Below are positions 1-10,626 of a DNA stretch of 64,000 nt, in pieces (the stretch's first letter is position 1; each line of letters opens with the position of its first letter). The DNA comes from Candidatus Doudnabacteria bacterium (GTDB lineage: Bacteria > Patescibacteriota > Doudnabacteria > UBA920). The stretch is from positions 4,283 through 68,282 of the forward strand of contig PLYC01000010.1 of NCBI GenBank assembly GCA_003151625.1, given 5' to 3'. The notes under the pieces were generated by a model, which searched no databases, was not told the origin of the DNA, and worked only from the letters and a program-made list of their open reading frames with translations. The position numbers and the translations under genes are program-made.

Positions 1-2929
1 CAACCTTTTTGTGTTCCTCTTTAAAGCGGTCGAATTTAATTGTTTCCACCACCAGCCGCATAAGTTCTAAAAGTTCCTGTTTTAATTTTATTACATCATC
101 CGGGGTGGCTAGCTCTTCTTCCAAGAAGAGTTTTTGCTTTTCCTGCAAATACCAGTATTTAAGGCCCACAACTTTTTCTTTTAAATATTTCTGTGCCGCC
201 CACTGGTAAATATAGAGTTGGTCGATGTCCTTTTTTCCGGATTTCTTTGGAAGCTTTCCTGTTTTATAGTCATAAATTATAAGACCCTGGTCGTTCAAAT
301 CTGCGCGGTCAATTCTGCCGACTAGCCTGAATTTATCCAAAAATAAAATAAAAGACTGTTCAATATATTTTGGCCTCGGCATATTAGCAACGCATTCGTC
401 GTAGAATTGCTTTAGCATTTGTTTGCCCTGTTTAAAGTAATCTTCTTTTTGTTTTTTTGTCTGGTACCATTCGTCTACCCAGTTTTTTTCGTAGAGTTTT
501 TCCAAAGACTCAAAGCTGGGCAAAACCGGGACGGTTTTACTTTTGCCAAACAAATCTTGTTGGGCAAAAGTTGTTGAGTCTTTAAACTCCCGCAAGTACT
601 CTTCAAAAACTTTGTGGATGGTGTTGCCAAAACTTAAATATTGGCTGCCCTGCACCGGGAGCTTTAAATAATATTGATATTTATATTTTAGCGGGCAGGT
701 TTCAAAATCTTTTAGCTGCGAATACGAAAATTTTTCGGGTAAAGTTAAAAAAACCTGCTCTTTTTTTGAAGCTTGCTTGTTAAAAACAACTTTACCGGTG
801 GCTTTAGTAGCTTTTTCGCTTGGGATTAATCCGGACTCGACTAAAAATTGCGAAGGTTTTTTATTTAGTTTACCGCCGTAATCTTTTGACCAGGTTAAAA
901 ACAGATTTTGTTTAGCTCGGGTAATCGCAACATAAAATAGTCGCCTTTCTTCCTGTAAATGGAAATCGCCTTGCGGTAAAATGTCCTTTATAAGGTCTTT
1001 GGGGATTTCAATGGCATCTTTTTTACCCAGGGTCGGAAAGCGCTTGTCAACCAGGTTAATAACAAAAACATTTTCGAATTCAAGCCCTTTGGCGCTGTGG
1101 ACGGTTAAAACCTTCAGGCTCTCCGGGCCTGAATCGGGGTTAAAATTAATTTTGCCCTCGTCGCCGGCCTGTTCTTCCAGTTCCAGCGAACGTAAAAAGT
1201 TATGCACGCTTTTGTCTTTGGCCTGTCCTTCGTAATTTTCAATTTTTTTGTAGAATTGTTCTATTAATTCCCTGTTCTCGGCGTTCTCCTGAGTTTCGTC
1301 TTCCAGCCTTTCGGCCATCTTTAAATCTCGAATTATCTCTACGGTAGTTTCCGCGGCACTTTTTGTTTGAGAAAACGCGTGGTGTTTATGTAAATTTGAC
1401 GTGAGCAATTCCAACTTTTTTCTTGCCTGATCGGTGAGTAGGCTTCCAACTTTGAGTTGTTCTAAAGTTTCAAAGAGGGTCAGAGTTTTTTTGCGTGAAA
1501 ATTCTAAAATTGCCGCAATATCATTTACGCTTAATCGAAACAACGGAATGTTTAGGACGCGGTAAAGTGAAAAGGAGTCTTCGACATTGTCCAGTAATTT
1601 TAAGTAGGCAAGAAGATCTAAAATAATCGGCTTTTTATACAAACCGGTGTTGGCCAAAAAAGTGTGCGGTATTTGCGCGTTCTCCAGCGCCGGTAACAAT
1701 GATTCAGCCGCTCCGTTGCTTCTTATTAGGATAGCAAAATCATTCCAGGTATTCTTGGGTGATTTAAGTTTGATAATTTTTTTGACGACCTCATTTATTT
1801 CCGAATTTAAATCCGGAGCTTCTACAACTTCCACGGTTCCCTGGCTTTTCACGTTAGCCAAAAGTTCCTTATTGATTTTCAGTTTAATCTCCAGCCTGTC
1901 GGGGTTGTTCTGCTGGATAAATTTGTAGGCCAAATCCAAAATTTGTTTGCCGGAGCGGTAGTTTTCCACCAATGTTATTTCTTTTAATCCTGGATATTCG
2001 TCCTTAAACTTTAAAATATTGGAAACGCTGGCGCCGCGGAATTTGTAAATGGATTGGTCATCGTCCCCCACTACGGCCACATTTTGTTTGTCACCGGCCA
2101 GAAGTTTGACCAGCTGATATTGCGCGTAATTGGTGTCCTGGAACTCATCCACCATTAAATATTTAAATTTATTTTGGTAATATTTTAAAATTTGCGGGCG
2201 CTTTTGAAAAAGCAGAAGAGTGTAATTTATCAAGTCGCCAAAATCCAGGTAGTTATTATCCAGCAGAAGTTTTTGGTAGACGTGATAAGCGTTGGAGACT
2301 TCTTCCAGGCGGGAGATTTCGGTTTGATCAATTTCAGTGTAGTTAGCCGATTTATCGGCTGTTATTTGTGAGTCCATGAATGGGCTGGCTACAGCTTCCG
2401 CGCTGTCCGTCGATAATCTTAATCTCTCCGCGTACTCCAAATATTGCTCCGGGGTAATAAGTTCGTCTTTGCACTTGGAAAAATGCGAAAGCAAGCCGCC
2501 AATAAATTTGGCGGGGTTGCCAAGGGGTTTGTAGTAGTCCAAGTCAAATTTTTCAAAATTGTTGTAAATCAACACCCATTGTTTGGTTCCGTCGAGCAGT
2601 TCAAAATCGTTGGGCAGACCAATGTCCAAAGCATGAGTCTTTAAAATGCGCTCGCAAAAGCTGTGGAAAGTGGAAATCCAGGTATCTACGTAGCCAATGG
2701 GTAAAATTAAGTCGACCCGTTCCTGCATTTCCCCCGCGGCCTTATCGGTAAACGTTAACGCTAAAATTTCATCCGGTTTTGCCAATTTTTGTTCTATTAA
2801 ATAAGCAATTCGCCTCGTAATCACAGTTGTCTTCCCCGTCCCCGCACCAGCCACTATCAAAAGCGGCCCGTTTCCATGGGTAACGGCACTTTCTTGCTCT
2901 TTATTTAAATTTTTCAATAACTCTTTCAT
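1..2929 (-). CDS. UvrD/PcrA-type superfamily I DNA helicase fused to a C-terminal PD-(D/E)xK (RecB/Cas4-like) nuclease domain. The N-terminus is at 2929; the extreme C-terminus runs off the window start.
   Basis: My own translation of the minus strand from the ATG at 2927-2929: MKELLKNLNKEQESAVTHGNGPLLIVAGAGTGKTTVITRRIAYL (Walker A GAGTGKT), then helicase motifs continuing for >950 aa. Near the window start: RIDRADLNDQG..IYDYKTGK..QLYIYQWAA, i.e. D..D/EYK nuclease motifs plus QxxxY. It is absent from the ORF track because it is truncated by the window edge. Confidence 0.7.
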   Translation of the reverse strand, partial: MKELLKNLNKEQESAVTHGNGPLLIVAGAGTGKTTVITRRIAYLIEQKLAKPDEILALTFTDKAAGEMQERVDLILPIGYVDTWISTFHSFCERILKTHALDIGLPNDFELLDGTKQWVLIYNNFEKFDLDYYKPLGNPAKFIGGLLSHFSKCKDELITPEQYLEYAERLRLSTDSAEAVASPFMDSQITADKSANYTEIDQTEISRLEEVSNAYHVYQKLLLDNNYLDFGDLINYTLLLFQKRPQILKYYQNKFKYLMVDEFQDTNYAQYQLVKLLAGDKQNVAVVGDDDQSIYKFRGASVSNILKFKDEYPGLKEITLVENYRSGKQILDLAYKFIQQNNPDRLEIKLKINKELLANVKSQGTVEVVEAPDLNSEINEVVKKIIKLKSPKNTWNDFAILIRSNGAAESLLPALENAQIPHTFLANTGLYKKPIILDLLAYLKLLDNVEDSFSLYRVLNIPLFRLSVNDIAAILEFSRKKTLTLFETLEQLKVGSLLTDQARKKLELLTSNLHKHHAFSQTKSAAETTVEIIRDLKMAERLEDETQENAENRELIEQFYKKIENYEGQAKDKSVHNFLRSLELEEQAGDEGKINFNPDSGPESLKVLTVHSAKGLEFENVFVINLVDKRFPTLGKKDAIEIPKDLIKDILPQGDFHLQEERRLFYVAITRAKQNLFLTWSKDYGGKLNKKPSQFLVESGLIPSEKATKATGKVVFNKQASKKEQVFLTLPEKFSYSQLKDFETCPLKYKYQYYLKLPVQGSQYLSFGNTIHKVFEEYLREFKDSTTFAQQDLFGKSKTVPVLPSFESLEKLYEKNWVDEWYQTKKQKEDYFKQGKQMLKQFYDECVANMPRPKYIEQSFILFLDKFRLVGRIDRADLNDQGLIIYDYKTGKLPKKSGKKDIDQLYIYQWAAQKYLKEKVVGLKYWYLQEKQKLFLEEELATPDDVIKLKQELLELMRLVVETIKFDRFKEEHKKV

Positions 2930-2997
2930 CGACTTTTTTAAATTTATAACTTTTAATTAATAACCAACAACCCAAAACCGCTGTTATAAGTTATAAA

Positions 2998-3444
2998 TTA
3001 TTTCTTATTAGTTATAAACTTTGTCCACTGCTTCCACAAATCCATACCGTCGTCTTTATAATTCGCCCAAAATTGCGCGGGATTGGTGATTTTTACGCCG
3101 TGATAGTTTTCAATGCTTAATAATGCGTTATCAGATGTTACCAAATACTCAGCCTTGGCTTCCACGGCACTTTCCAAAATTTTATTATCTTCCGGATCCG
3201 ACACTACCCGAATTTGCCTACGATTAACAACCCAATTAATTTGGGCGAATAAATCGTTTAGCTCTTTTTGGTAAGCATCGTTGTTTATCAACTGACCGCT
3301 TATTAGTCTATTCTCCTGCAAGGTCTGCCTGTTGGCAAAAGCCTCAATTTCTCCGGCGATAACCGCGTCTATAATTTTTTTTTCGTAAGAATATTCGTCT
3401 TTAAACCCGTTTATTAATACATTGGTATCGAGGACTATTTTCAT
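2998..3444 (-). CDS. PIN-domain ribonuclease (VapC-like toxin)
   Basis: N-terminus MKIVLDTNVLI, with conserved acidic residues (DPEDNKILE, LVTSD) spaced as in PIN domains. 148 aa. Its start overlaps the stop of the upstream small ORF by 4 nt (ATGA). Confidence 0.65.
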   Translation of the reverse strand: MKIVLDTNVLINGFKDEYSYEKKIIDAVIAGEIEAFANRQTLQENRLISGQLINNDAYQKELNDLFAQINWVVNRRQIRVVSDPEDNKILESAVEAKAEYLVTSDNALLSIENYHGVKITNPAQFWANYKDDGMDLWKQWTKFITNKK

Positions 3445-3719
3445 TTTGTGATTCTATAATATATGGGGACGCCCGATGATAATTTATAAATAATTCTTCT
3501 TGCTAAAAGATGCCGAAGCAGCTCTCTTAAGTGCGAATGTGAGTGATGAAGCGGTATAGTCTCCACCTTAGCCCGCAATTCACTAAACGAAAATTCTGTA
3601 TCGGGAAATTCTTGGTTGATTATTTGCTCAAGAGCAACGATATCCGTTTCAAAATTATCCCTAGTTTCTGCTTTAAATGAACGGCCGTCTGGATTATTAT
3701 TTTTTTCTGTCATCTGCAA
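3441..3719 (-). CDS. Putative antitoxin or DNA-binding partner of the PIN toxin
   Basis: 92-aa ORF directly upstream of the PIN gene with a 4-nt overlap. C-terminal region LRELLRHLLARRIIYKL..GVPIYY looks like a winged-helix recognition helix. Confidence 0.4.
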   Translation of the reverse strand: MQMTEKNNNPDGRSFKAETRDNFETDIVALEQIINQEFPDTEFSFSELRAKVETIPLHHSHSHLRELLRHLLARRIIYKLSSGVPIYYRITK

Positions 3720-3729
3720 GAAAATTAAA

Positions 3730-4026
3730 TTACAATTTTGACTTGACCTTTTCGTATGAAAAAAAACCGGACTTTGGATCGTTTAGAAGAGAGCCTTTAA
3801 TCAGACCTTTGGCTAATAACGAGTCAATAATTTGTTTTAAGCCGCCTTTATTTTCGTTGTAGTCCTTTGAACTCACGATGAATCTGTCTTTCCTGATTTT
3901 TAAAAACTCTGATTCCTCAAAAGTCGGGTTTAAATCAATGCCCAATTTACCGGACTTGATGTCAAGTTGCTTAATTTGCTCTTCTGAAATTCCTCTATAT
4001 CTGCTTGGGTCTTGTTCGTCGGGCAT
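3730..4026 (-). CDS. Hypothetical 98-aa protein (possibly an OST-HTH-like partner of the NYN protein)
   Basis: ORF packed tightly between the NYN gene (3-nt gap) and the antitoxin-like ORF (11-nt gap). No recognised motif. Confidence 0.35.
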   Translation of the reverse strand: MPDEQDPSRYRGISEEQIKQLDIKSGKLGIDLNPTFEESEFLKIRKDRFIVSSKDYNENKGGLKQIIDSLLAKGLIKGSLLNDPKSGFFSYEKVKSKL

Positions 4027-4028
4027 AT

Positions 4029-4547
4029 TTATTTCCTCCCGGTCTTAATGGGCATTAAAAATTTGCGCGGATTTTCATCAAGGTCTATAAAATAATCTGT
4101 TAAAACTTTTATTTTACCGCTGCAACTTTTTCCGAAAGCTAAGGTTTCTGTAAACTGGCCGGACATTTGCAGATACTCTAAAAGCGGTGCGTAGTCCCCG
4201 TCGCCCGAAGCCAAAACCACCACATCCAATTTATTCATCAACTTTACAATATCCATAGCAATGCCCACGTCCCAATCCCCTTTTTGATGCCCTCCGGCAA
4301 AGGTTTGCAATTCTTTAACCTTTACTTCAAAACCAGCCTTTTCTAAAGCCTCAAAAAATGTATGTTCCTCGGGCATATCGGCCTTAACCACATAAGCAAT
4401 GGCGCGAATTAATTTTCGGCCTGCCACGGCCTCTTCTAAAACCTCGTTAAACTTAACTCTCGCGTTATACATATTGCGCGCAGAGTAGTACAAATTCTGC
4501 ACGTCCACGAACACTCCTACTCTTTGATCCGGGTTTCTTATAGACAT
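4029..4547 (-). CDS. NYN/LabA-like domain protein (predicted RNase)
   Basis: VGVFVDVQNLYYSARN ... VVVLASGDGDYAPLLEYL, with acidic residues placed as in the NYN (PF01936) fold. Confidence 0.6.
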   Translation of the reverse strand: MSIRNPDQRVGVFVDVQNLYYSARNMYNARVKFNEVLEEAVAGRKLIRAIAYVVKADMPEEHTFFEALEKAGFEVKVKELQTFAGGHQKGDWDVGIAMDIVKLMNKLDVVVLASGDGDYAPLLEYLQMSGQFTETLAFGKSCSGKIKVLTDYFIDLDENPRKFLMPIKTGRK

Positions 4548-4548
4548 A

Positions 4549-4791
4549 TTATTGGTTTTTATAATAAAATTTTATAGATAAAATTATTGCCGTAATCCAA
4601 ATCGCTAGCCAAACAAGCAATGTAGTTAAAAAAGATCGATCACTTTGCCAATTTCCCGCCACTCCTAAAGGCGCTATTAGTAAAGATGCCCCAATGATTA
4701 GCGAGGCAATGATTACTGCAATTACCGAAAAAATCTTTCTTGATGTTCTTTTTTCCGCATCAGTTGGTGGCGGAAACAATTTGCTTGTCAT
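4549..4791 (-). CDS. Small membrane protein
   Basis: 80 aa with two hydrophobic helices (IFSVIAVIIASLIIGASLLIA, LLVWLAIWITAIILSI). Stop lies 2 nt from the NYN gene start. Confidence 0.4.
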   Translation of the reverse strand: MTSKLFPPPTDAEKRTSRKIFSVIAVIIASLIIGASLLIAPLGVAGNWQSDRSFLTTLLVWLAIWITAIILSIKFYYKNQ

Positions 4792-4800
4792 AAGATTAAA

Positions 4801-5820
4801 TTACTCCAATGATTTTTGCTGGTCAGCCTCTTTAACCTCATCCAGCTTTAATGACGATGCATTGGTAATACTGGTTTTTAGTTTTGCAAAATCGTTGGTT
4901 ACCGTACCCATGGTGTTGCCTGCGTTTTTTATATGGTTGCCTAGGACGTCTAAGTTACGGCCGAATTTGTCGGATTCCTGTTTAATTCCCGCAATCATTG
5001 CAAGTATTTGCTGGGCGGCTTCGTTAACCTTTTGGCCGCGAAGCGATAGTAAAATAATTTGCAGGTGATGATAAAGCGTGTTTGGGCTTACAAAGTAAAC
5101 TTTCTTTTCACGGCCGTAGCCCAAAGTCGGTGTATCGTCCAGCACTTCGCTAAACACGCCCTCGCTGGGAATATACATCAGCGCAAAGTCAAAAGTGTTT
5201 TCCTGCGGTAAAATATATTTTTTGTGGATTTCGTCTACGCGTTTTTTCACGTCTTTTAAAAATGTTTTCTTTAAAGCCTCCTTGGCTTCATCCGTCGTGG
5301 CTTCTTTATAAAGTCGGAAGTTTTCCATACTAAATTTACTGTCTATGGGCAGAATTTTTTCGCCAACGTAAATAATGGCATCTACGACTTCGCCATTTTT
5401 GAACTTATACTGAATTTGATAGCCGCTTTTAGGCAAAGCCTGCGAGAGCATATTTTCCAGCATCTCTTCGCCAAAGTTGCCTCTTAATTTAGGTGAGGCA
5501 AGGGTTTCGGTAAGGCGACGGATATCTGGGCCTACTTGAGATATCCCTCCAAGCTCCTTGGTCAGCGCCGCAATAACGCGCCCTGCGTTATCCAGACGTT
5601 CGTTAATGGCCTTGTTGGTTTCATCTATGGATTTTTGCATCCCCACCCTGGTTTGATCCGTACCCTGCTTAATTTCCTTCATCCACTCCATCATAACCTT
5701 CATTCCCTGGTCGTCCGCGGGCTTTTGCGACTGTTTTTTTAAATCAACTAAAAAATTAAATAAAAAACCAAAACCCGCCAAAAGCACGAGGATTATTATG
5801 TAAAGAATGCCTGTTTGCAT
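4801..5820 (-). CDS. rmuC: DNA recombination protein RmuC
   Basis: N-terminal TM helix and coiled-coil, then the RmuC core (LPKSGYQIQYKF, PIDSKFSMENF, LMYIPSEGVF). Confidence 0.75.
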   Translation of the reverse strand: MQTGILYIIILVLLAGFGFLFNFLVDLKKQSQKPADDQGMKVMMEWMKEIKQGTDQTRVGMQKSIDETNKAINERLDNAGRVIAALTKELGGISQVGPDIRRLTETLASPKLRGNFGEEMLENMLSQALPKSGYQIQYKFKNGEVVDAIIYVGEKILPIDSKFSMENFRLYKEATTDEAKEALKKTFLKDVKKRVDEIHKKYILPQENTFDFALMYIPSEGVFSEVLDDTPTLGYGREKKVYFVSPNTLYHHLQIILLSLRGQKVNEAAQQILAMIAGIKQESDKFGRNLDVLGNHIKNAGNTMGTVTNDFAKLKTSITNASSLKLDEVKEADQQKSLE

Positions 5821-6062
5821 GAGTTTATTATACTATAACGGTTGGCCAAAAACAACCTCTTGACAAATTAGCAATCTTGGGTATAGAGTGATAATAGATG
5901 CAAAATCATAAGCGCCGCTTGGGGCTTGAAAGTTAGGAGAGGACGGGATTATCCCGGAATGAAGCCGGGAAAAAGAGAGCCCTCCCCTATCCTTTGGCCC
6001 TAATACGGCAAAGAATGAATAAACGTAAAGACCGCCTGTGTGGCGGTCTTTTAATATGTAAT

Positions 6063-6138
6063 GGCGGACTGAACGGGACTCGAACCCGCGACCTCTCCCG
6101 TGACAGGGGAGCGCTCTAACCAACTGAGCTACCAGTCC
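6063..6138 (-). tRNA. tRNA-Asp (GTC), CCA encoded
   Basis: Minus-sense ggactgg-ta-gctcagttggttagagc-g-ctccc-ctGTCac-gggag-aggtc-gcggg-ttcgagt-cccgt-tcagtcc-g-cca. All stems pair. Overlaps the spurious ORF 5833..6123. Confidence 0.8.
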
Positions 6139-6146
6139 GTATTTTT

Positions 6147-6223
6147 TGGTGTCGGAGAGAGGAATTGCACCTCTGACCTTGGGCTTATGAGTCCCACGCT
6201 CTAACTAACTGAGCTACTCCGAC
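6147..6223 (-). tRNA. tRNA-Met (CAT), probably initiator type, CCA encoded
   Basis: Minus-sense gtcggag-ta-gctc...agc-g-tggga-ctCATaa-gccca-aggtc-agagg-tgcaatt-cctct-ctccgac-a-cca. Three consecutive G-C pairs at the base of the anticodon stem (initiator hallmark). The T-loop has an unusual G at position 55. Confidence 0.65.
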
Positions 6224-6289
6224 TCGCCGCAACTTGCTCCAAGTTTCAGAATTTAACAGGCTAATTTAACAAAAATCCCTCGACAGAGG

Positions 6290-6665
6290 GTAAAATCTGT
6301 CACGATTTTAGAATTATAAGCACTTATTCGCCCCGTACCAGTCGTATGACTCCGGTGCAGGGCATAAACCAGTCGCCCATTCAGCACTCACAGTATCCAC
6401 TTAATTGGTTTGTGGCTGTGCCATAAACCGGAGCGAACACAGTGAGCGACTGGTTTATGGTTGCGGGACCCGGACTCGAACCGGGAACCTCAAGGTTATG
6501 CATACCACTACAACTTTAATTGCTTCGCAAAATTGCGAATTTGTGGTCTGGACTTTCTCTTTACCCCGACAAATTGTCTGGGTATCTACCATTAAGTCTC
6601 TACACCTTCTCCAAAAAATAAGCCGGAGCTTGGCTCGGGATTACCACCGCTAAGGGCTTCCCCGA
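6290..6665 (-). ncRNA. Candidate structured RNA upstream of and co-oriented with tRNA-Met/tRNA-Asp (possibly RNase P RNA; identity unresolved)
   Basis: No credible ORF; the track ORF 6405..6653 is low-complexity. Minus-sense contains AGAAAGUCCAGACC (resembles the RNase P CR-I/P4 5' strand GGAAAGUCCGG), a UGAAUG..CUGGUUUAU segment (resembles CR-IV/V ..GAUGAAUG..CCGGCUUAU), a 14-bp inverted repeat cataaaccagtcgc/gcgactggtttatg, and a tRNA-like T-arm + acceptor 3' strand + CCA (ggttcccggttcgagtccgggtcccgcaACCA, plus-strand 6451-6483) that lacks a matching 5' acceptor strand. Confidence 0.25.
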
Positions 6666-6937
6666 ATTTGATAGATTATCACGCTGGAATTACTCCCTGC
6701 GTAGCCCATTTAAAGATTAGTTACAAGCGGAGCTAAAAAAACTAACCATACTAACAACTTGAGCCTTGCGAGCTGCCAATTGCTCTATCCCGCAAATACA
6801 GTTTACAATAATTCAATAAAAAAAGCAACACCAAGCGGTTTTTTAGGTTTGTGAACATCAAAGTCCAAGTAAAAAGGCCTTATTTACACTAACGTTAAGC
6901 CGACATTAGTGTAAATGAATGATTTATTGCGAAATAA

Positions 6938-6968
6938 CAAAACCACCCTTATTTTGGGGGTGGTTTTG
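6938..6968. terminator. Rho-independent terminator-like hairpin (bidirectional)
   Basis: aaaaccaccc-ttatttt-gggggtggtttt, flanked by A and T runs. A second hairpin tctctcgc-ggag-cgagaga is adjacent at 6970-6990. Confidence 0.5.
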
Positions 6969-7004
6969 TTTCTCTCGCGGAGCGAGAGAAGAGAGGCGTA
7001 AAGA

Positions 7005-7070
7005 TTAAGCGCGCTTCTTTTTGGAAGCGGTCTTTTTCTTCTTTACAACTTTCTTTTTCTTAGCAGCCAT
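7005..7070 (-). CDS. Lysine-rich 21-aa small ORF (MAAKKKKVVKKKKTASKKKRA) with a canonical Shine-Dalgarno sequence
   Basis: GGGAGA lies 8 nt upstream of the ATG, and two hairpin terminators follow within 70 nt. Not in the ORF track because it is <60 aa. Confidence 0.3.
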   Translation of the reverse strand: MAAKKKKVVKKKKTASKKKRA

Positions 7071-7346
7071 TGTGCTAGTCTCCCTGGAAGCCAGACTAAT
7101 TTTGGCCTAGACTTCCTTAATTTTCTACCCTTATATCTTGAAGCTTTTTACTTCAAGCGGAGTAGTGTAACCGCAGATCATAACGCGGATCTGTGGCCCA
7201 GCCTTCGCTCAAGGCTACGGCGGGCACGGCTCGGATCAAACGCTGACTTTGTATTTCTATGTTAAAAAAATTTGCTTTCTTTTTTCTTTCTTTATTTCTG
7301 ATTTCGGAATTATTTTTAACCAATCATAATAATTGTAAAACTTTTC

Positions 7347-8057
7347 TTACTTAATGTCAAGTAAATTTTTATTATCAATCTCCCTTAAAACAGAATTTCT
7401 TTTTTTTATGTTTTTAATTTTATTTAATTCATTTTTAATTCTTGTGGCTGTCAAAGTTCCAATTAAATTTAAATATTTTTTAATGGCGTTTTCTGTTTGA
7501 ACATTCAATTTCAAATTATGCGTTTTGCTGAATCTTACCGCCCTTATAACCCTAAGAGGATCTTGTTTAATTCTAACTATTGGGTTGCCAATAAATTTGA
7601 GTTGGTTGGTCTTTAAATCGGCAAGACCTTTGTGATAGTCCAAAATTTTAGCAGATTTTGCGCTTAAGTATAGAGCATTTATGGTAAAATCGCGTCTTTT
7701 GCTGTCTTGCTTGGCTGTATTTACAAATGAGATTTTTGGGTATCGGCTCTTCCCATAATAATCCTTGCGGAAAGTTGTTATTTCAATGGAGAGGTTGTGC
7801 TCTGCGGCAATTATTACTCCAAATTGTTTGTTCCTTGCTTCGAATTTAATACCTGCCTGCTCAAGTATTTTAATAACTTGGTCAGGCGTGGCTTTGGTCG
7901 CGATATCAATATCTGTTATGGGTCTCTTTAATAATAAGTCCCTGACCATTCCGCCCACGTAAAAAGTTTGCGGAAAGTTGTCCACAAGTAAATTGTAAAT
8001 TTTTGTCCCAACTTTTTCTAATTCAGACCTTGGTCTATAATTTAGTTTTGCGTTCAT
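7347..8057 (-). CDS. cca: tRNA nucleotidyltransferase (CCA-adding enzyme, minimal class II form)
   Basis: Pol-beta nucleotidyltransferase head motif GGMVRDLLL..DIDIAT, plus RRDFTINALY. 236 aa. Confidence 0.7.
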   Translation of the reverse strand: MNAKLNYRPRSELEKVGTKIYNLLVDNFPQTFYVGGMVRDLLLKRPITDIDIATKATPDQVIKILEQAGIKFEARNKQFGVIIAAEHNLSIEITTFRKDYYGKSRYPKISFVNTAKQDSKRRDFTINALYLSAKSAKILDYHKGLADLKTNQLKFIGNPIVRIKQDPLRVIRAVRFSKTHNLKLNVQTENAIKKYLNLIGTLTATRIKNELNKIKNIKKRNSVLREIDNKNLLDIK

Positions 8058-8152
8058 AGAAGCAAAATTAAACGCGAAAGATTTGATTCGAGAAGATAAA
8101 TGCGAATTCGCGACAAGTTCGCGTTGATATTTCGCGTACTGCTTCGCTTCTA
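8057..8152. mobile_element. MITE-like ~95-nt element with terminal inverted repeats (copy A, cca-atpC spacer)
   Basis: tagaagcaaaattaaacgcgaaag...aatgcgaattcgcgacaagttcgcgtt...ctgcttcgcttcta; the ends tagaagc/gcttcta are inverted repeats. Confidence 0.55.
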
Positions 8153-8602
8153 TTCTTTAAACACACCCTCGCCGGTAATCGGCTGACGGCGATGGGAATG
8201 TTTGCGCGCGATGTTCAGCCGCGTTAAGCTCTGGTTTAAGCTGGCTGCGACTTTCGCGTATTCCTCGGAAGACATTTTTGTTTCTGATATGGCTTTTTGG
8301 GCGCGCTTAACCGCTTCTTCGGTTTTTTGGACGTCTATTTCGTAATGATGCTCTGCCGCGTCCGCCAAGGCCACGACCTGACTATTTGGTCGAACCTCTA
8401 TAAAACCGCCGGTAACATTAATAAAATGCTCTTTCCCGCCGGATTTTGCTACCAATTCCCCTGCTGTCAACGTCGCAACCAATGGAATATGCCCAGGCAG
8501 AATAGTGATCTGCCCCAAAGTCGTGGGGCACGATAAACTATCCAGTTCTTCTTTAAGAACGGTTCGTTCGGGGGTTACTAGTTGGAAATTTAACTTACTC
8601 AT
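8150..8602 (-). CDS. atpC: F1Fo ATP synthase epsilon subunit
   Basis: LVTPERTVL..ILPGHIPLVATL N-terminal beta-sandwich, then a C-terminal helical region. Last gene of the atp operon. Confidence 0.85.
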   Translation of the reverse strand: MSKLNFQLVTPERTVLKEELDSLSCPTTLGQITILPGHIPLVATLTAGELVAKSGGKEHFINVTGGFIEVRPNSQVVALADAAEHHYEIDVQKTEEAVKRAQKAISETKMSSEEYAKVAASLNQSLTRLNIARKHSHRRQPITGEGVFKE

Positions 8603-8607
8603 AGTTT

Positions 8608-8904
8608 TTATATCCCACTACCTTCGTTAAATTCTTGAACGTCAGTGGCTCCTAACTGCATCCAGATTCGCGTTATATCCGCGACGCTATTTATCCCCAG
8701 TTTTTTTCCAATGTTTAACCTGTGTGATTTTATGCCTTCAGGGCCCACCCTCAATATCTCTGCAATAGCTTCTCTTCCTTTACCGGCTGCTATCCATCTC
8801 ATTACTTGTTTTTCAAATGGAGTCAGTTCCTTAAAACCCTCTTCTTCGGTTTTAGAAACATACAAATCCGGCTTAACTTCTAAGTCCATTTTTACTCTAC
8901 CCAT
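8608..8904 (-). CDS. LuxR/GerE-family helix-turn-helix protein encoded between atpD and atpC
   Basis: LTPFEKQVMRWIAAGKGREAIAEILRVGPEGIKSHRLNIGKKLGINS matches the LuxR-type HTH. The track ORF begins at 8934 overlapping the atpD 3' end; the real start is probably the internal Met near 8904. Confidence 0.55.
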   Translation of the reverse strand: MGRVKMDLEVKPDLYVSKTEEEGFKELTPFEKQVMRWIAAGKGREAIAEILRVGPEGIKSHRLNIGKKLGINSVADITRIWMQLGATDVQEFNEGSGI

Positions 8905-8908
8905 AAAT

Positions 8909-10626
<1,718 letters not shown>

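Follow-up and report, generated by a model that had tools for sequence, protein, structure and literature searches.

A conserved row of nuclease genes with strain-specific fillers, probably not a toxin-antitoxin or defence island, in a Candidatus Doudnabacteria chromosome

In the genome of a Candidatus Doudnabacteria bacterium (GenBank assembly GCA_003151625.1, contig PLYC01000010.1), genes for two predicted nucleases, an NYN-domain and a PIN-domain protein, stand close together on the minus strand, between a gene for an RmuC-family protein and one for a UvrD-type helicase fused to a nuclease. The stretch of 64,000 nucleotides analysed here (positions 4,283 to 68,282 of the contig; hereafter the window) had been interpreted before from its letters alone, and that sequence-only reading saw a five-gene operon in which a PIN toxin pair is coupled to an NYN ribonuclease (RNase), with the look of a defence or stress-RNase island. 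If true, it would have put a composite two-RNase defence or stress module in the catalogue. Our analysis supports it in part. The locus is probably a conserved row of housekeeping genes with strain-specific small genes filled in between them, and neither a toxin-antitoxin (TA) system nor a defence island: RmuC, NYN, PIN and UvrD recur in this order among relatives, and the three small genes of the window are missing even from a relative whose UvrD gene is 95% identical in nucleotides. The NYN nuclease moreover has orthologues elsewhere that are encoded between the genes for ribosomal protein S15 (rpsO) and polynucleotide phosphorylase (PNPase; pnp), and this association is the most interesting lead from the locus and the only one worth following.

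Four Conserved Genes in a Row

The five minus-strand open reading frames (ORFs) of the earlier reading are all present at the positions it gave: a PIN_3-family nuclease of 148 amino acids (aa), called PIN here (2998-3444); an orphan ORF, p92 (3441-3719), which has 92 aa if read from a TTG codon and 90 aa with the start of the public annotation, an ATG at 3713; a 98-aa protein with unassigned fold, p98 (3730-4026), with a GGGAGG Shine-Dalgarno sequence upstream; a single-domain, LabA/COG1432-type nuclease of 172 aa, called NYN here (4029-4547); and mem80 (4549-4791), an orphan of 80 aa in which two hydrophobic stretches, presumably helices, can be seen directly in the sequence. p92 overlaps the start of PIN by 4 nt, and the following spacings are 10 nt (p92-p98), 2 nt (p98-NYN) and 1 nt (NYN-mem80). 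Nevertheless, the boundary around five genes is arbitrary, because the RmuC gene (4801-5820, minus strand) ends only 9 nt upstream of mem80 and the UvrD gene (2-2929, minus strand, with its start at 2929 and its C-terminus beyond the left edge of the window) follows PIN after 68 nt; tight packing extends over at least six genes when RmuC is included. The earlier assignments of PIN, NYN, RmuC, the UvrD-nuclease fusion and a membrane protein were correct. RmuC, with an N-terminal membrane anchor, matches PF02646 (1.2e-52), and the UvrD gene product is a UvrD/PcrA-type SF1 helicase (UvrD-helicase, 4e-83; UvrD_C, 3e-57) with a C-terminal PD-(D/E)XK nuclease domain (PDDEXK_1, 3.5e-27).

How far is this arrangement kept among relatives? 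A scan of a genome collection with the NYN protein gave 80 loci, 76 of them from Candidatus Doudnabacteria or Patescibacteria metagenome-assembled genomes (some with the depositor label Saccharibacteria) in which NYN is 65-98% identical, and synteny was mapped by tblastn of seven window proteins against the genome loci. RmuC is upstream of NYN in all 69 assessable loci, PIN lies downstream of it at the same position in 62 of 65, and a syntenic UvrD orthologue is present in 63 of 65; all four genes occur together in 61 of the 76 loci. In the three loci without PIN, NYN abuts UvrD. The same order extends to L095, a deeper lineage with 59% identity in NYN and 46% in PIN. Furthermore, 34 of 41 scanned relatives share with the window a tRNA-Met/tRNA-Asp cluster upstream of the block. 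Such a conserved row with a recurrent upstream tRNA cluster indicates that the block is a fixed part of the chromosome, not a mobile island. NYN, PIN and UvrD covary in their pairwise identities (Spearman 0.59-0.66; 0.59-0.65 for PIN against NYN and UvrD), as expected for co-inheritance and a vertically inherited PIN, and PIN has diverged about as much as UvrD (median pairwise identity 66% and 59%, respectively). That NYN and PIN are neighbours holds well beyond this genome, but as part of a longer row and not as a five-gene unit.

It is to be noted that RmuC behaves differently. At its one syntenic position it comes in two classes only about 30% identical (L011, L017, L018, L026, L029, L031-L034 and others belong to these loci), which are discordant with the UvrD identity classes, and its Spearman correlation with the other genes is 0.34-0.41. 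The PIN-less genomes, the two RmuC classes and the other partners that NYN has elsewhere argue against obligate coupling of the backbone genes.

The locus is best explained as a co-directional, probably co-transcribed row of housekeeping genes, RmuC, slot 1, NYN, slot 2, PIN_3, slot 3 and UvrD/PD-(D/E)XK, in which the four backbone genes are inherited vertically at a fixed site in the chromosome of this lineage of the Candidate Phyla Radiation (CPR/Patescibacteria), and the junctions are insertion-tolerant slots, empty in some genomes and occupied by unrelated small genes in others. In the window, mem80 is the content of slot 1 and p98 plus p92 that of slot 2, with nothing in slot 3.

Changing Contents of the Junctions

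The three junctions (RmuC-NYN, NYN-PIN and PIN-UvrD) measure anything between about 0 and 2.1 kb; their medians are 329, 386 and 119 nt. When 250 plus-strand junction ORFs of at least 30 aa were put together with the three small proteins of the window, the 253 sequences fell into 193 BLAST clusters, of which 166 are singletons. Pfam recognised PDDEXK_3 (14 times), DUF559/Vsr-like domains (five), the pilin N-methylation motif N_methyl (five), HepT (two), the nucleotidyltransferase domains Polbeta (two) and NTP_transf_2 (two), 23S-rRNA-IVP, NUDIX and MazG among the 126 slot ORFs of at least 60 aa, most of which belong to no family. HepT/MNT pairs are among the slot contents of other genomes, and clusters of PDDEXK_3 and DUF559 proteins turn up in different slots in different genomes. 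It is the junctions, and not the NYN-PIN pair, that gather selfish-looking mini-nucleases and occasional true TA pairs in other genomes. Another recurrent occupant is a fast-evolving family of 14 members without Pfam match, found by iterative search, which can be in any of the three slots. Its members are 15-28% identical to the one at 5313-6014 of L164, the closest relative found, and others lie in L044 (6523-7122 and 7185-7493), L004 (670-1185), L040 (3601-4155), L045 (7424-7912) and elsewhere; their core motif is roughly Y-x4-LE-x2-FDLR-x2-EGL.

L164 is the most instructive genome for comparison with the window. Nucleotide identity is 95% in UvrD, 91% in PIN, 83% in NYN (98% at the protein level) and 74% in RmuC, and this stepwise drop suggests recombination breakpoints at the slots. 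Its slot 1 is empty, slot 2 has ORFs of 91 and 234 aa, and slot 3 has one of 145 aa, none of them like the window ORFs. Since mem80, p98 and p92 are strain-specific and all missing there, a functional unit of five genes, as proposed earlier, does not hold. Slot inserts in L164, L014 and L021 are bordered by a second copy of the 5′ end (first 19-22 codons) of the backbone gene that lies downstream, which is PIN in L164 (5220-5285) and L021 (5261-5317) and NYN in L014 (1887-1946). Judged from their sequences, these duplicated gene-start fragments look like a recombination scar of cassette insertion. Selfish mini-nucleases and cassettes between conserved genes (PDDEXK_3, DUF559/Vsr-like and GIY-YIG) offer a comparison: in the relatives, too, PDDEXK_3 and DUF559 genes are found at the junctions, not always in the same slot, some of the inserts have duplicated 5′ flanks, and the flanking genes show mosaic divergence, so that cassettes would be mobile at the slots. 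In contrast, mem80, p98 and p92 have neither a nuclease nor any other recognisable domain. In this respect, the locus illustrates well how strain-specific orphan ORFs and selfish mini-nucleases come to lie between the conserved genes of these streamlined genomes.

What are the three small genes of the window? Among 5.8 billion clustered proteins, p92 finds no match except itself, and the same holds for a full HMMER search of 1.84 billion representatives; its best Pfam match, DUF7347, is insignificant (E = 0.14), and its single-sequence AlphaFold2 (AF2) model, three helices with pLDDT 59.5, is unreliable and too poor for a fold search. The wHTH-like character given to p92 in the earlier reading, or any other DNA-binding domain of the antitoxin kinds (RHH, AbrB, HTH, Phd/YefM), is thus at most putative. 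mem80 is alone in its cluster of the protein collection, although the source genome has it annotated, and it has only sub-threshold Pfam matches. Neither p92 nor mem80 has a relative in the 80 genome loci by tblastn or in L164. p98, too, is absent from L164; it finds only itself in the 5.8-billion-protein collection and matches nothing in Pfam, NCBIfam, PADLOC or PHROGs. Its sole homologue among the 80 loci is in L003 (61% identity), in the same slot and directly abutting PIN, and comparison of the two indicates a real gene because pN is 0.23 and pS 0.89. PADLOC and PHROGs gave nothing for p92 and mem80 either, and an exact look-up of p98 and of the NYN protein in a contig index returned no record. 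Iterative profile searches started from the three proteins over 4,068 related-locus ORFs recruited nothing new, and the search seeded with the L164 slot ORF converged on the family of 14 without the window ORFs (p92 at E = 25). The G+C content at third codon positions is 0.27 in mem80 and 0.32 in p92 as compared with 0.44-0.48 in the backbone genes, which fits recent acquisition or de novo origin. mem80, p98 and p92 are thus strain-specific or lineage-restricted fillers of the slots without conserved link to the nucleases.

Two short sequence matches were seen around these genes. The first codons of p98 (ATATGCCCGACGAACA, encoding MPDEQ; 4013-4028) equal an internal segment of the NYN gene (ATATGCCCGAGGAACA, DMPEEH; 4363-4378) at 15 of 16 nt; the significance of this match is borderline, and it could have been left over from a duplicated gene start. 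A 13-mer, GTAATTTAAT(T/C)TT, common to the junctions upstream of mem80 and p92, was considered as an insertion signature and rejected as being at chance level, because the window has four matches where 1.6 would be expected, and eight of 100 shuffles reach this number.

A PIN Nuclease without a Cognate Antitoxin

PIN is a member of the known PIN_3 family, new to it and, as its active-site residues predict, catalytically intact. It exceeds both curated cut-offs over the full domain, with 66.3 bits (5.5e-18; cut-off 27; profile positions 1-115 of 115) for Pfam PIN_3 (PF13470) and 48.8 bits (7.6e-13; cut-off 29.15) for NCBIfam TIGR00305. Acidic residues D6, E44, D86, E91, D105 and D131 are invariant in alignments of 65 and of 44 orthologues. 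The AF2 model made with the 44-sequence alignment is a confident PIN fold (pLDDT 84). A Foldseek search with it gave no match at E <= 1e-3, and a sequence search against the Protein Data Bank (PDB) gave none; the nearest structures, at TM 0.5-0.6, are FitB (2bsq), VapC (5ecw and 3zvk), archaeal VapC-like proteins and HARP protein-only RNase P, so PIN is VapC-like in its fold. Proteins of this family (PF13470/TIGR00305/COG1569) have been labelled 'typically toxins' (Matelska et al., 2017; PMC5499597). The present PIN differs from them in two respects: its neighbours are RmuC, NYN and UvrD, not a transcription-factor-like antitoxin, and it adds a conserved C-terminal helix of 40 residues outside the profile.

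This helix (residues 109-148; window 2998-3120) is strongly conserved, with P122, F125, W126, K130, D131, G133, D135, L136, W137 and K138 invariant. It is modelled at low confidence, and it might serve for interaction or autoinhibition.

Is PIN then the toxin of a VapBC-type pair, as had been supposed? With VapBC and FitAB type II TA systems it shares the PIN fold, the conserved acidic residues and a small upstream ORF with a 4-nt overlap. What defines such a system, however, is an antitoxin conserved together with the toxin, and p92 has no relative in the syntenic loci or among the 1.84 billion representatives. From locus to locus a different ORF abuts the start of PIN, with 33 to 684 aa; in L003 it is the p98 homologue, and PDDEXK_3 nucleases fill the NYN-PIN slot in some loci. 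In seven genomes there are at most 60 nt on either side of an intact PIN, which leaves no room for an antitoxin. Because the abutting ORF changes from locus to locus and is missing in these seven genomes, the defining feature of a TA system fails. The distribution is not patchy or mobile either, as PIN occupies its fixed position in nearly all relatives, its identities covary with those of NYN and UvrD, and the tRNA-Met/tRNA-Asp neighbourhood is conserved. We therefore take PIN as a PIN_3 nuclease that stands alone and is inherited vertically, not as a VapBC-type toxin, and the toxin pair of the sequence-only reading, with p92 as the presumed partner, falls away. Without a cognate antitoxin, PIN would most likely act constitutively on RNA or on DNA-repair intermediates instead of arresting growth. 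Since PIN behaves as a vertically inherited gene, the family label and automated names are no safe guide here, and annotations as 'PIN family toxin' on these Doudnabacteria genes are probably misleading.

The overlap of 4 nt cannot be taken as a mark of a pair, as it is seen whatever gene is upstream of PIN. In a crude ORF call over the 64-kb window, the minus strand has 60 of 70 ORFs, and 19 of 58 same-strand neighbours are at most 11 nt apart; tight co-directional packing is the norm in this genome. A caution follows for such genomes in general: neither tight packing nor 4-nt overlaps are evidence for functional coupling.

The idea of a defence or stress-RNase island did not survive either. 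A defence system should be recognised by a signature protein and a defence-island context, and the block drew from PADLOC-DB v2 no more than noise and one generic NYN match that covers part of the profile (6.7e-9; positions 200-297 of 310), while PHROGs gave nothing informative. The surroundings are of a housekeeping kind, namely tRNAs, a CCA-adding/poly(A)-polymerase-type enzyme and an ATP synthase operon.

The NYN Nuclease and Its Relatives between rpsO and pnp

NYN is the best-conserved gene of the block, with a median pairwise identity of 84% within Doudnabacteria. It matches PF01936 over residues 9-157 (3.2e-31; 109.2 bits; cut-off 24.2) and the PDB entry 2qip, a structural-genomics entry of VPA0982 from Vibrio parahaemolyticus (E = 4e-24). 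D15, D91, D93, D99, D116 and D118 are invariant among orthologues, with D15, D91, D93, D116 and D118 named as such also in distant ones, and the motifs DVQN, GDWDVG and SGDGD are unchanged even in orthologues of 44-55% identity. The conserved acidic residues, whose loss would have spoken against the sequence-only reading, are therefore retained in the alignments of both NYN and PIN. That reading had pointed to both PF01936 and OST-HTH; the former is confirmed, and the latter (OST-HTH/LOTUS, PF12872) gives no match in NYN at E <= 1. These features predict a catalytically intact, metal-dependent nuclease of LabA/COG1432 type, a new member of a known family. Like the LabA-like nucleases (PF01936, COG1432, 2qip), it has the full-length domain with the three motifs; it differs in consisting of the NYN domain alone, without the OST-HTH/LOTUS fusion that is a common but not obligatory architecture, and in belonging to an unusually conserved orthologous group whose usual context is rpsO-NYN-pnp. 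The function of the LabA/COG1432 family was still given as unknown in the 2017 classification of the PIN superfamily (PMC5499597).

This context was met outside Doudnabacteria. The gene order is S15-NYN-PNPase in L078 (Spechtbacteria; e.g. 5717-8753) and L080 (Kapaibacterium), and NYN-S15-x-PNPase in L077 (Kerfeldbacteria). In a metagenome sample of 71 loci (within L091-L163; e.g. L100 3692-6804) with NYN 52-63% identical over its full length, rpsO is directly upstream of NYN on the same strand in 38 of 66 assessable loci, and pnp is downstream in 33 of 62. In four further loci, NYN is upstream of L15-SecY. A 188-aa ORF between S15 and PNPase in L077 was examined as a divergent PIN and rejected (hhalign probability 0.2%). 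No S15 or PNPase gene is in the 64-kb window, and NYN stands between the two in no Doudnabacteria locus. In the literature searched, no paper containing both NYN and rpsO was found, nor any description of the rpsO-NYN-pnp association, and the terms NYN, PNPase and PIN are absent from the main text of a paper on Patescibacteria genetics (PMC10633639).

The position of NYN orthologues between rpsO and pnp points to a housekeeping role in RNA processing or RNA decay. NYN would most likely be a housekeeping endoribonuclease that takes part in RNA decay by PNPase, in processing, or in controlling the rpsO-pnp transcript. With this, the LabA/COG1432 family gains a concrete and testable candidate function, namely that of an RNase whose gene is associated with those of S15 and PNPase in many ultra-small bacteria. 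It is tempting to combine all this into one scenario, which we offer tentatively and hold, taken as a whole, to be somewhat doubtful. The NYN group would be widely conserved, mostly in CPR-type lineages and usually inside the rpsO-pnp operon; it could be an unrecognised housekeeping endoribonuclease that works with PNPase or in rpsO-pnp control; in Doudnabacteria its gene might have been relocated beside a solitary, antitoxin-less PIN_3 nuclease; and the junctions of the backbone might be recombination hot spots, at which cassettes are swapped, leaving gene-start scars and mosaic flanks.

Alternative Explanations

Could the whole row be a single operon for DNA repair or recombination, in which RmuC, NYN, PIN and UvrD/PD-(D/E)XK act on DNA ends or flaps and the two small nucleases are DNA- or structure-specific? 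RmuC and the UvrD-PDDEXK_1 fusion are indeed proteins of DNA metabolism, the four genes stand in this order in 61 of 76 loci, although insertions between them are frequent, and also in the deeper lineage, and the PIN-like superfamily takes in FEN-type DNA nucleases (PMC5499597). Yet the fold of PIN is matched by VapC, FitB and HARP RNases and not by FEN, orthologues of NYN are found in RNA and ribosome contexts (rpsO-pnp and L15-SecY), PIN is missing where NYN abuts UvrD, and RmuC has been swapped for a class about 30% identical and discordant with the other genes. Such an operon seems unlikely to us.

Another possibility is that PIN is a genuine toxin after all, paired in each lineage with a different, rapidly replaced upstream protein, which would be p92 here. 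Antitoxins of type II TA systems are modular and diverge fast, some ORF abuts or overlaps the start of PIN in about 40 of 68 loci, and the ends of several slot ORFs have motifs that, to the eye, may resemble winged helices. However, the ORFs at this position include PDDEXK_3 nucleases, a 684-aa protein and 266-aa proteins, the same filler families are also found in the RmuC-NYN and PIN-UvrD slots, iterative profiles link p92 or p98 to no other slot ORF, and PIN keeps its active site in the seven loci without partner on either side, all of which makes a replaced antitoxin quite improbable. The original model, in which p92 and PIN form a VapBC-like type II TA pair co-transcribed with NYN, p98 and mem80 as a defence or stress-RNase island, draws on the PIN_3 annotation, the 4-nt overlap, the intact catalytic residues of both nucleases and the entry of true TA modules (HepT/MNT) and small nucleases into the same slots in other genomes, but is hardly credible for a p92 without homologue in the protein collection or any syntenic locus, a syntenic and vertically inherited PIN which in seven genomes has no space for a partner, a negative PADLOC result amid housekeeping neighbours at a fixed chromosomal position, and a set of fillers missing as a whole from L164.

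We thus prefer the conserved housekeeping row with strain-specific fillers. Three points weigh against it: the synteny of the backbone lies within one class-level lineage and could be historical, not functional; the rpsO-pnp link of NYN rests on orthologues of 52-63% identity and not on this genome; and the metagenome loci with rpsO-NYN-pnp have no taxonomy attached.

Transcription Signals and Surroundings of the Row

Where would a transcript of this row begin and end? Directly downstream of tRNA-Asp there is a terminator-like hairpin of 10 pairs, six of them G-C (6027-6051, minus strand), which probably marks the upstream limit of a transcription unit starting with RmuC. At the other side, the 68-nt spacer between PIN and UvrD has an AU-rich hairpin with a 16-nt inverted repeat (2941-2999, minus strand; RNA fold -12.6 kcal/mol, z = -2.2), found by an inverted-repeat search, which is not a canonical terminator as it has no U-tract. 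In a scan of 2700-6300, promoter counts were at chance level, and a convincing internal terminator was not found between the 6051-6027 hairpin and UvrD.

Small genes between conserved ones are not confined to this row. In the ATP synthase operon of the window, the gene of a 108-aa GerE/LuxR-type helix-turn-helix protein lies between atpD, whose end it overlaps, and atpC, and a 108-aa ORF without recognised family lies between atpG and atpD; the two inserts occupy 8608-8934 and 10300-10626 on the minus strand. Intercalation of small genes thus appears as a habit of this genome. Finally, just upstream of the two tRNA genes at 6062-6138 and 6147-6223, which make up the tRNA-Met/tRNA-Asp cluster, there is a tRNA-Leu(CAA) gene (6458-6794, minus strand) whose anticodon loop is split by a 261-nt group I intron (Rfam RF00028, 66.9 bits, 6526-6728), and ARAGORN finds this gene only with introns allowed.

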